The position numbers are program-made. Shown here in pieces: positions 15,001 to 18,000 of a stretch of DNA of 64,000 bases. The stretch lies in the NCBI RefSeq assembly GCF_056712565.1, contig NZ_CM160072.1. One strand, given 5' to 3'. The stretch's first letter is position 1. The number at the start of each line of letters is the position of its first letter.

Positions 15001-18000
15001 TCCTTTTTAACCGCTCCGCCACTGTTAATGATCATTGCCGGGATCTTCCTCTGTAAACTGTGTGCCGTGCTGGCGAGTAGTGGTTCTGGCGCGCCCGGTG
15101 GTGTCTTTACACCGACGCTATTTATCGGTCTTGCCATTGGCATGTTGTATGGTCGTAGCCTGGGATTATGGTTACCTGATGGCGAAGAAATTACGCTTTT
15201 ACTCGGATTGACAGGGATGGCGACACTGTTGGCGGCGACCACGCACGCGCCGATTATGTCGACGTTGATGATATGTGAAATGACCGGGGAGTATCAGCTA
15301 CTCCCCGGTTTATTGATTGCCTGCGTAATTGCGTCGGTAATTTCGCGGACGTTACACCGTGACTCTATCTACCGCCAGCACACTGCGAAGCATAGCTAAG
15401 CGGATGTATTGCCCCAGTTCACGCTGTTCGGCGCGCGGCAGATAAGGCAGTTCACCAATGAGCGGTGCCGGAAGTTTTTTACCGAGCACATCAATGATTT
15501 CCGCATAATGCGCCAGTCCTGGGTTGATTCGGTTAGCCACCCAGCCAATGAGCGGCAGCCCGTCGTTGGCAATCGCCTGAGCTGTTAGCAGTGCATGGTT
15601 AATGCAACCTTCCTGAATACCGACAACCATCAACACCGGCAGTTGTTCCTGCACCACCCATTCAGAGAGCGGACGCAAATCATTCATCAGACTGCGCCAG
15701 CCGCCAGTCCCTTCTACCACGACATGATCGACTTTATCGGTCAGGTTTGCCAGGCCGTTTGAAATGAGGGTGTAATTGATTGGGCAACTGTGCGCCACGC
15801 TACTTTCTTCTTCGCTTAACGCGATAGGATTAACTGCTTCATAAGGCAGTTCGATGGTTGAAACACTCTGCAACACCAGGGCATCTTTATTACGCAGCCC
15901 TTCGGGTGTCTCTTTGCTCCCCTTCGCTACGGGTTTATATCCCGCAACCGTTTTTCCCTGGGAGGCTAACGCTTGTAGCAATGCGCGGGAAACCACCGTT
16001 TTCCCTACAGAAGTGTCTGTACCGGTAATAAAGAAACGCTTCAGCATCACTAACTCCACCGTTATGCTTCACAAATATAAACCAGGAAAATAATTAACCT
16101 TGAAAGTCTAAGTTATGCTTTCCTGGCCCAAATTGAGATAGCGCAAATTTTGGTAGAACAGTTAAAAAATGTTAACCCTGCAACAGACGAATCAACAAAG
16201 AACCGTTATACATCGCGTCTTTTACCAGCGCAGCGCCTGCCATCGTGCCCTGGTTAGAAAACTGAGTACTCTCAACGCTAATGTGCTGACTATACGCAGG
16301 AAGGGCCTGCTGACGGATGCTGTCCGAGATAACTGGGAAGAGGATATCTGCCGCTTTACTTAACGGTGAGCCAATCAGTATTTTTTGTGGGTTAAAAATT
16401 CACCATGATGGCAAGAATGCGACCGACATGCGCGCCTACCCCGGTAATGATGTCTTTTGCCAGTAGATCGCCGCGCAATGCCGCCTGACACAATGAGTCC
16501 ACGGTTAACGGTTGTCCATGTAACATCGAGCTCATGGATTGATTGAGACGCAGCTGTGCCAGCTCAAGAATACTGTCCACACTGGCGATGGTTTCGAGGC
16601 AACCGTGATTCCCGCAATAACAGCGTTTCCCATACGGGTCGACCTGTGTGTGGCCTATTTCCACGAGGCTACTGCTGCCTGCGTGTAGCAGATGACCATC
16701 GGTAATGACGCCCGCCCCCACGTTGTGATCGATAACCACCTGAATCACATCGCGCGCCCCGCGTGAGGCACCAAACAAGGCCTCAGCCATCGTCCATGCG
16801 CTGATATCATGCTGAATATAAACCGGTACGCCGGTATGCTGCTCCAGCGCCTCGCCGAGCGGCATCTCTTTTACATCCTCGTAGAACGGCATGCGATGTA
16901 CAATACCATTTTCCGTATCAATAATTCCCGGCAAGGTTATGGCAATCGAAGTCAGACGCTCAAGTTTTTTCTGGTGGCGGATAAAAAACTGATCGATATG
17001 GGAAATGATACGATCCAGCAATGGCGAGTCATCTTTTAACGCCAGTTCCTGCGACTCCTCCACTACCAGTTTGCTGCTCAGATCGCGCAAAGCAAGGAAA
17101 ATCTCCCCGCGACTAATGCGCAGAGAAAGATAGTGCCAGGCTTCAGTTTCAACCACCAGCCCCACTGCCGGACGGCCACGGTTCCCCGCTTCTTTGATTT
17201 CCAGCTCTTGCACCAGGTGTGCTTCGAGCATCTCACGGACAATTTTAGTGATACTGGCAGGAGCCAGTTGCGCCAGACGGGAAAGATCGATACGCGAGAC
17301 TGGACCAAGCTGATCAATCAGGCGATAAACCGCGCCCGCGTTGGTCTGCTTTATTTGATCAATGTGCCCAGGCTGATTTTCAGCAACCACCGCATACTCC
17401 CTATATTTTCGCGCTCCGAAATAATCTGTAGGCTATGGTGAAGCACTTCAATACGTGTCGTCAAATTTTTACTTAGGCATGTGATTAACAGCACATTTTT
17501 CGGGCTTTTTCGCTGAAATTTCCCTCACCTGAGAGCATTCAGCAGATGAATACGAAAGTTACGCGCAGCCGGACTTTGTTCATGATGTTTCGGCCAGACC
17601 AACCACATTTCAGAAACCGCATCCTCTTCAGCAATCGGCACCCAGCGCATTTCGTTGAGCTGAACACGTTTAAATGACGCAGGCAAAATTGAAACACCCA
17701 GACCAGCGGAAACCAGACCGATGATGGTCATTGCCTCACCCACCTCCTGAGTGATGACGGGCGTCAAATTGTAACGTCTCATCAGCCCGAGAATATCGTC
17801 ATACAGCCCTGTTCCGACGTGCGGATCAAAAAAGACAAAGGGTTCTTTCGCCAGTTCAGCCAGCGTTACACTCGGGTTATTTGCCAGGGGATGATCGTGC
17901 GGGATCATCGCCATAAGCGGTTCATGGACGATGACTGCGTGTTCAAGCGTCTCCGGTAACGCTGTGTTACGCAGCAATCCCATATCCAGCGTTCCTTCAA

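Follow-up and report, generated by a model that had tools for sequence, protein, structure and literature searches.

A broken mlc reading frame in an ST95-like Escherichia coli chromosome: Apparent loss of a sugar-uptake repressor through a 2-bp deletion

Mlc is a repressor, the targets of which include ptsHI, ptsG, manXYZ, and malT, along with mlc itself (PMC1156936; PMC2634768). It is inactivated via its sequestration by dephosphorylated EIICB-Glc (PMC1156936; PMC2634768). The consensus sequence for Mlc binding consists of TT-N9-AA, with AT-richness at positions +/-7 to +/-11 (PMC1874608), and mlc is autoregulated via its own binding site (PMC2634768). Toward the end of the protein, two helices (381-394 and 395-406) double back in the direction of the DNA-binding domain and stabilize the binding of EIIB-Glc, a binding for which Gly406 is essential, and Mlc without its C-terminal helices displays suboptimal DNA binding (PMC11863449). 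Oligomerization is mediated by the C-lobe, or O-domain (PMC2742894).

Damaged versions of this gene have been described. The mlc (dgsA) gene of HB101/RR1 thus carries an amber allele, i.e., Gln369 to stop as due to C1105T (PMC5379014). Mutations that abolish the repressor are common in glucose-limited chemostats (PMC2763269), and during adaptation of E. coli to the mouse gut stop-gained as well as frameshift dgsA alleles reach 28-50% (PMC10878103). From the opposite direction, overexpression of mlc provides protection from phage lambda, through malT/lamB and manXYZ (PMC7553319).

Considered here is an mlc locus that lies within a 64-kb stretch of chromosome, the whole of which is referred to as the window. 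The window is that of an ST95-like (phylogroup B2) E. coli. Among its closest genomes are those of the B2 strains UTI89, S88, APEC O1, IHE3034, and NU14, all of the ST95 complex. A perfect 64-kb match is found among none of the complete RefSeq E. coli genomes, and the nearest of these, NZ_CP098206.1 (Z0117EC0054), differs by 3 substitutions plus 3 indel sites over 64 kb.

That the damaged gene is mlc, of the ROK family (PF00480), is confirmed by synteny, by the identity of residues 1-331 to those of UTI89 Mlc, and by an equivalog score that is above cut-off. Gene order is kept as ynfL - mlc - bioD paralogue (ynfK) - clcB, with ynfL upstream and both ynfK and clcB downstream, these neighbors having been placed by mapping annotated UTI89 and Z0117EC0054 loci onto the window. 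The 332-aa product by itself scores 600.5 bits against NCBIfam NF049930, the 405-position Mlc equivalog, and so passes the curated cut-off of 530. Over its 406 aa, UTI89 Mlc in turn matches PDB 3BP8 chain A at 100% identity, i.e., to Mlc as found in the Mlc-EIIB complex, with PDB 1Z6R and 9SRT being further Mlc structure entries.

The mlc frame ends at a premature TAA after 332 codons, as an initial, sequence-only reading of this DNA had stated and as is seen in the ORF list (Table 1). The product ends ...GRILAIMVNF, with codons 1-331 being those of intact Mlc, per alignment with UTI89, and with F332 being new. What would have followed is still present but is one base off register from the mlc start. 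Its translation begins NPQKILIGSPLSKAADILFPV and ends LLIRLLQG*, in full NPQKILIGSPLSKAADILFPVISDSIRQQALPAYSQHISVESTQFSNQGTMAGAALVKDAMYNGSLLIRLLQG*, possesses zero internal stops, and is of codons that are identical in alignment to UTI89 mlc residues 334-406. The sequence-only reading was right, that is, in describing a C-terminus which continues without stops in another frame, but the 72 codons that it counted are instead 73 (N334-G406), or 74 if the F is counted as well. NF049930 thus is tiled by two ORF pieces, covering positions 1-330 and 333-405, with these in different frames, such that one uninterrupted frame over the whole of the model is absent.

Upon alignment of the locus with that of UTI89, 1401 of 1403 columns are identical and the sole difference is a 2-bp gap. 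This gap is exactly the loss, immediately following codon 331, that had been proposed, and the locus is, as proposed, 1219 bp in length, versus 1221 bp for the intact gene in both UTI89 and Z0117EC0054. The reference protein is 406 aa in length, rather than also ending at residue 332. In terms of nucleotides, AATTTATTTAAC as found in UTI89 is turned into AATTTTTAAC as found in the window, such that AAT TTA TTT AAC (N331 L332 F333 N334) becomes AAT TTT TAA. The ancestral site, TTTATTT, lost either TA or AT, thereby giving rise to T5, with exact placement of the loss within the run being ambiguous. The loss does lie, then, within the run to which it had been assigned, but that run was not in its ancestral form the homopolymer that had been supposed. 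As the flanking 1401 bp otherwise are base-for-base identical to intact mlc loci, the broken frame is, as judged from these alignments, not a chance pattern. Slippage by a repeat unit has been rejected as the origin of the deletion, since an ancestral TTTA-TTTA would lose 4 bp rather than 2.

Table 1. Positions of features of the mlc locus and of sites at which the window differs from other genomes.
Feature	Position	Strand or location	Basis or remark
mlc 5' reading frame	16392..17390	minus	GTG start at 17390, 332 codons; ORF list and UTI89 alignment
Premature TAA closing the mlc frame	16392-16394	minus	ORF list
mlc 3' remnant, codons N334-G406 plus native TAA	16172..16393	minus	translation; +1 frame relative to start
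T5 run (A5 on plus) with deletion junction	16394..16398	strand-neutral	pairwise alignments
Mlc operator-like palindrome ATTATTTCGGAGCGCGAAAATAT	17403..17425	minus	sequence pattern
T-run difference vs NZ_CP098206.1	37321	fumB-manA spacer	window has majority allele
T-run difference vs NZ_CP098206.1	40224	ydgA-uidC spacer	window has majority allele
pntA substitution vs NZ_CP098206.1	26009		window has majority allele
Private synonymous ynfH substitution	12877	ynfH, plus, 12509-13363	T; all 5,326 matching genomes differ
Private missense uidA substitution, E377K (GAA to AAA), beta-glucuronidase	43588	uidA, minus, 42905-44716	

In comparison with intact Mlc (as represented by PDB 1Z6R, PDB 3BP8, and NF049930), residues 1-331, the coding of residues 334-406, the neighbors, and the operator all are the same, whereas in the window the frame is broken and no single product spans the model. 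Cut off by the deletion are the last 75 aa of Mlc. The Pfam ROK domain consists of residues 88-389, and a stop after residue 332 removes 57 residues of that domain plus the 390-406 tail. In 15 aligned enterobacterial Mlc orthologues, invariance extends over L332-P343 as well as nearly all of V390-G406. The C-terminal helices, Gly406 included, are encoded solely out of frame, past the TAA. Seitz and colleagues, in 2003, reportedly found tetramerization of Mlc to be through the C-terminal helix. Kept, as located prior to residue 332, are the D-domain, the linker, and the zinc ligands (H247, C257, C259, and C264). With both C-terminal helices as well as roughly 49 further core residues gone, the 332-aa fragment should be misfolded, unstable, or inactive, or at best serve as a very poor repressor. 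AlphaFold2 prediction from a 15-sequence alignment, which is of low confidence (mean pLDDT 47, pTM 0.35), adds little to this picture. For the earlier suggestion that the truncated product would be missing that C-terminal part which is needed for EIICB-Glc interaction, there is published support (PMC11863449).

The allele resembles that of HB101/RR1 in that a premature stop falls within the C-terminal part of Mlc, the C-terminal helices are removed, a single lineage is involved, and discovery was by genome sequencing. It differs in type, being a 2-bp frameshift (codon 332) rather than a nonsense substitution (codon 369), and in background, ST95-like B2 versus a K-12/B hybrid laboratory strain, and it removes 37 more residues than does the HB101/RR1 allele. 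Alleles from chemostats and from the mouse gut similarly affect the same gene and are of the same stop or frameshift class, with expression of malT/lamB and of the PTS raised (PMC2763269; PMC10878103). Those, however, are of K-12, arose under defined selection, and have measured frequencies.

Upstream of mlc, ATTATTTCGGAGCGCGAAAATAT lies 13 bp before the GTG. With a TT-N9-AA core and AT-rich arms, this palindrome fits the published consensus (PMC1874608) and may be viewed as a candidate autoregulatory operator of the Mlc type. It is identical to that of UTI89, so the assertion that a candidate autoregulatory box is still present has held up, with that box being intact. Scanning of the mlc locus for promoters and terminators found nothing above shuffled expectation. 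A null mlc allele in combination with an unchanged operator would result in constitutive expression of the regulon, along with expression of truncated mlc mRNA. Most likely, that is, the repressor is dead, with expression from ptsG, ptsHI-crr, manXYZ, malT, and the mlc promoter being constitutive.

The preferred explanation, to which we assign a probability of roughly 0.6, is of a genuine 2-bp deletion that is private to this strain and which results in loss of mlc function in an ST95-like E. coli. The loss of TA or AT from within TTTATTT, at codons 332-333, would both shift the frame and immediately supply a TAA. The product, Mlc residues 1-331 plus Phe, would retain the N-lobe and zinc site along with its winged-helix DNA-binding domain, but from the ROK C-lobe the final strands and helix would be missing, as would both C-terminal helices (381-406), which normally pack back onto the DNA-binding and EIIB-binding part. 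The cell then would act as an mlc null, i.e., with repression gone when no glucose is present, and the derepressed set would include ptsG, ptsHI-crr, manXYZ, malT (hence also the mal genes, lamB among them), along with the promoter of mlc. Favoring a real deletion is that the locus and intact mlc are otherwise the same over 1401 bp, that the change is one of 2 bp rather than a plus-or-minus-1 homopolymer miscall, and that mutations abolishing mlc function recur and are selected for. A clean 64 kb, with no other private indel and with the majority allele at both T-runs, favors it as well.

A realistic possibility too, if on the doubtful side, is that the organism's mlc is intact and that 2 bp were dropped during base-calling or polishing from within the AT-rich, low-complexity TTTATTTAA. 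Consistent with such an assembly or consensus error are the T/A-rich, low-complexity nature of the deletion site, a source genome which is outside of the RefSeq complete-genome set searched, and the uniqueness of the allele. Among the 5,366 complete E. coli genomes matching a 71-bp query centered on the junction, that is, none carries the deleted allele, and the best matches are at 97.3%, i.e., differing by the 2-bp gap alone. Neither the exact 332-aa product nor the exact 73-aa remnant is present in a 15-billion-protein collection or a 153-billion gene-position index, look-ups of exact products that also cover assemblies of public read sets, and the 32-nt junction, CATCATGGTGAATTTTTAACCCACAAAAAATA, has 0 exact matches among JGI metagenome contigs. 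The allele thus is absent from all of the collections queried. Such absence from other genomes, from metagenome contigs, and from gene calls is, however, what private mutation and error alike predict. Disfavoring real variation, further, is that one private indel versus two private SNPs represents a high indel share.

Sequence from elsewhere in the window speaks to the same question. Private variants over the 64 kb number three, that is, the ynfH synonymous substitution, uidA E377K, and the mlc deletion, with the latter the sole private indel. The window base at the uidA site is seen in 0 of 4,936 matching complete E. coli genomes. The two private substitutions imply that the window is from a distinct strain, one outside of the complete-genome collection, and in such a strain private mutations are to be expected; both substitutions are located away from GATC and CCWGG methylation motifs, which counts against error. 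Besides the mlc gap, indels relative to NZ_CP098206.1 consist of two intergenic 1-bp T-run differences, and the alleles present in the window are common to 5,341 (fumB-manA) and 1,120 (ydgA-uidC) genomes. These two differences along with the pntA substitution are, as judged from the sequences compared, peculiar to NZ_CP098206.1. Against error as well are that the window contains no ambiguous base and that the change removes an A from between two T3 runs, and 2 bp in total, unlike the usual 1-bp homopolymer error. Errors of homopolymer type would be seen as a 1-bp change in a pure homopolymer together with similar errors elsewhere, which is not the pattern found. The clean 64 kb, in short, argues against an indel-prone assembly, but is compatible with a one-off consensus error in AT-rich sequence.

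An mlc match is present in 5,421 of 5,426 complete E. coli genomes, as counted by presence and coverage; the gene is, then, generally kept by natural selection, a point against a real deletion. Among the best 120 homologues of Mlc, mostly named as Enterobacteriaceae, nearly all are 405-406 aa in length, and the homologues are uninterrupted. Sporadic damaged Mlc variants of E. coli nonetheless are found in public data, and occasional mlc lesions therefore are not unheard of. Four such variants (P0007, P0009, P0012, and P0062) possess in-frame internal deletions of 18-36 aa. Three others (P0001, P0003, and P0008) are fusions of 567-662 aa that read through to neighboring genes, with Mlc fused to a PF13500 domain (taken as bioD/ynfK) in P0001, to PF16784/PF06147 domains in P0003, and to a LysR-type, ynfL-like protein in P0008.

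If the deletion is real, then the allele could instead be leaky, with a +1 slip at A-AUU-UUU-UAA-C leaving a low level of repressor, though this is improbable. Positions 16392-16405 on the minus strand, GGTGAATTTTTAAC, do formally constitute a +1 ‘shifty stop’, that is, a deletion-made U5 run preceding UAA-C, with an SD-like GGUGA upstream. Shifty stops are said to have been described by Weiss and colleagues in 1987 as involving +1 slippage at a re-pairing codon before a stop, as in prfB. Within the candidate slip segment, GGTGAATTTTTAACCC, the P-site codon is one capable of +1 re-pairing and an in-frame stop comes next (AAU UUU UAA C), with the slipped frame reading F-NPQKIL.... While UAA occupies the A site, peptidyl-tRNA-Phe could shift its pairing forward by one base along U5, and the fraction of ribosomes which so slip would make Mlc that is without Leu332 only (...AIMVNF-NPQKIL...), with ILAIMVNFNPQK as junction peptide.

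Translation of the slipped frame confirms this sequence logic, and a re-pairing codon plus stop is the mechanism of prfB slippage. The GGUGA, too, ends 2 nt before the UUU and pairs with the 16S tail at -7.4 kcal/mol, versus -10.7 for the prfB element, but it appears to pair elsewhere on the anti-SD, such that the aligned spacing would be about 5 nt versus the critical 3 nt of prfB. The site moreover stems from a unique mutation, one without a match in metagenome contigs or in any of 5,366 E. coli genomes, and both release factors recognize UAA, an efficient stop. Leu332 in addition is invariant, so a protein without it may be inactive anyway. The likeness to the prfB +1 site (CUU UGA C) lies in a re-pairing P-site codon (UUU U), an in-frame stop with C after it, and, just upstream, an SD-like element rich in purines. 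The mlc site by contrast has UAA rather than the RF2-specific UGA, has SD pairing that is weaker and apparently differently spaced, and is without conservation or autoregulatory logic, making this a resemblance only. That the deletion accidentally made a working recoding site, with slippage measurable and the allele therefore hypomorphic, at low expression, instead of null, would seem very unlikely indeed, and the chance of meaningful leakiness of the deleted allele is similarly slight. If true, then the site would represent a natural frameshift mutation that is partly rescued by the slippery sequence which it itself generated. Two further candidates have been rejected: transcriptional slippage at T5, since a 5-nt run is too short, and -2 ribosomal slippage, as re-pairing of the tRNA on AUU would involve a first-position mismatch.

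Hardly more credible is that a real deletion has produced, as the 332-aa fragment, not a null but a constitutive repressor, i.e., one which is not sequestered by EIICB-Glc. The fragment retains the DNA-binding domain, the linker, the zinc site, and part of the oligomerization domain, and the lost C-terminal helices are what stabilizes EIIB binding, yet removal of the C-terminal helices alone already weakens DNA binding (PMC11863449), and here another 49 residues are lost from the ROK core, probably destroying the fold behind dimerization.

Returning to the genuine private deletion as the preferred reading, this would be a new allele of a familiar class, that is, provided that it is not an assembly error, an ordinary pseudogenization of a well-understood regulator as found in a pathogenic-lineage background. 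If real, then what is seen is an extraintestinal-type (ST95-like) E. coli without its repressor of the glucose/mannose PTS transporters and of MalT. Constitutively high PtsG, ManXYZ, and LamB would be expected and, with these, better scavenging of scarce glucose (PMC2763269, PMC10878103), with more overflow metabolism a possible cost. Exposure to phages using LamB or ManYZ might be greater as well, extrapolating from the opposite-direction finding with mlc overexpression (PMC7553319). The allele then would supply one more case, here from a natural pathogenic lineage, of adaptive gene loss that falls repeatedly on mlc. The deletion opens no new question and, if an assembly error, matters only for annotation.

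Elsewhere in the window, on the minus strand at 1384-1647, mapping of coordinates locates a remnant of ydfJ, which encodes an MHS-family MFS transporter. In annotation of the nearest genome this is an incomplete pseudogene without an N-terminus and, as the remnant is common to relatives, it points to an older, lineage-level gene loss. Within rsxC (55573-57699, plus strand), in its C-terminal part, is a tandem array (57228-57650) in which a 96-bp unit is present in 4.4 copies, with 94% matches. The array encodes a repeated 32-aa segment that is rich in Ala, Lys, and Glu, and its copy number is that of the nearest genome, NZ_CP098206.1.
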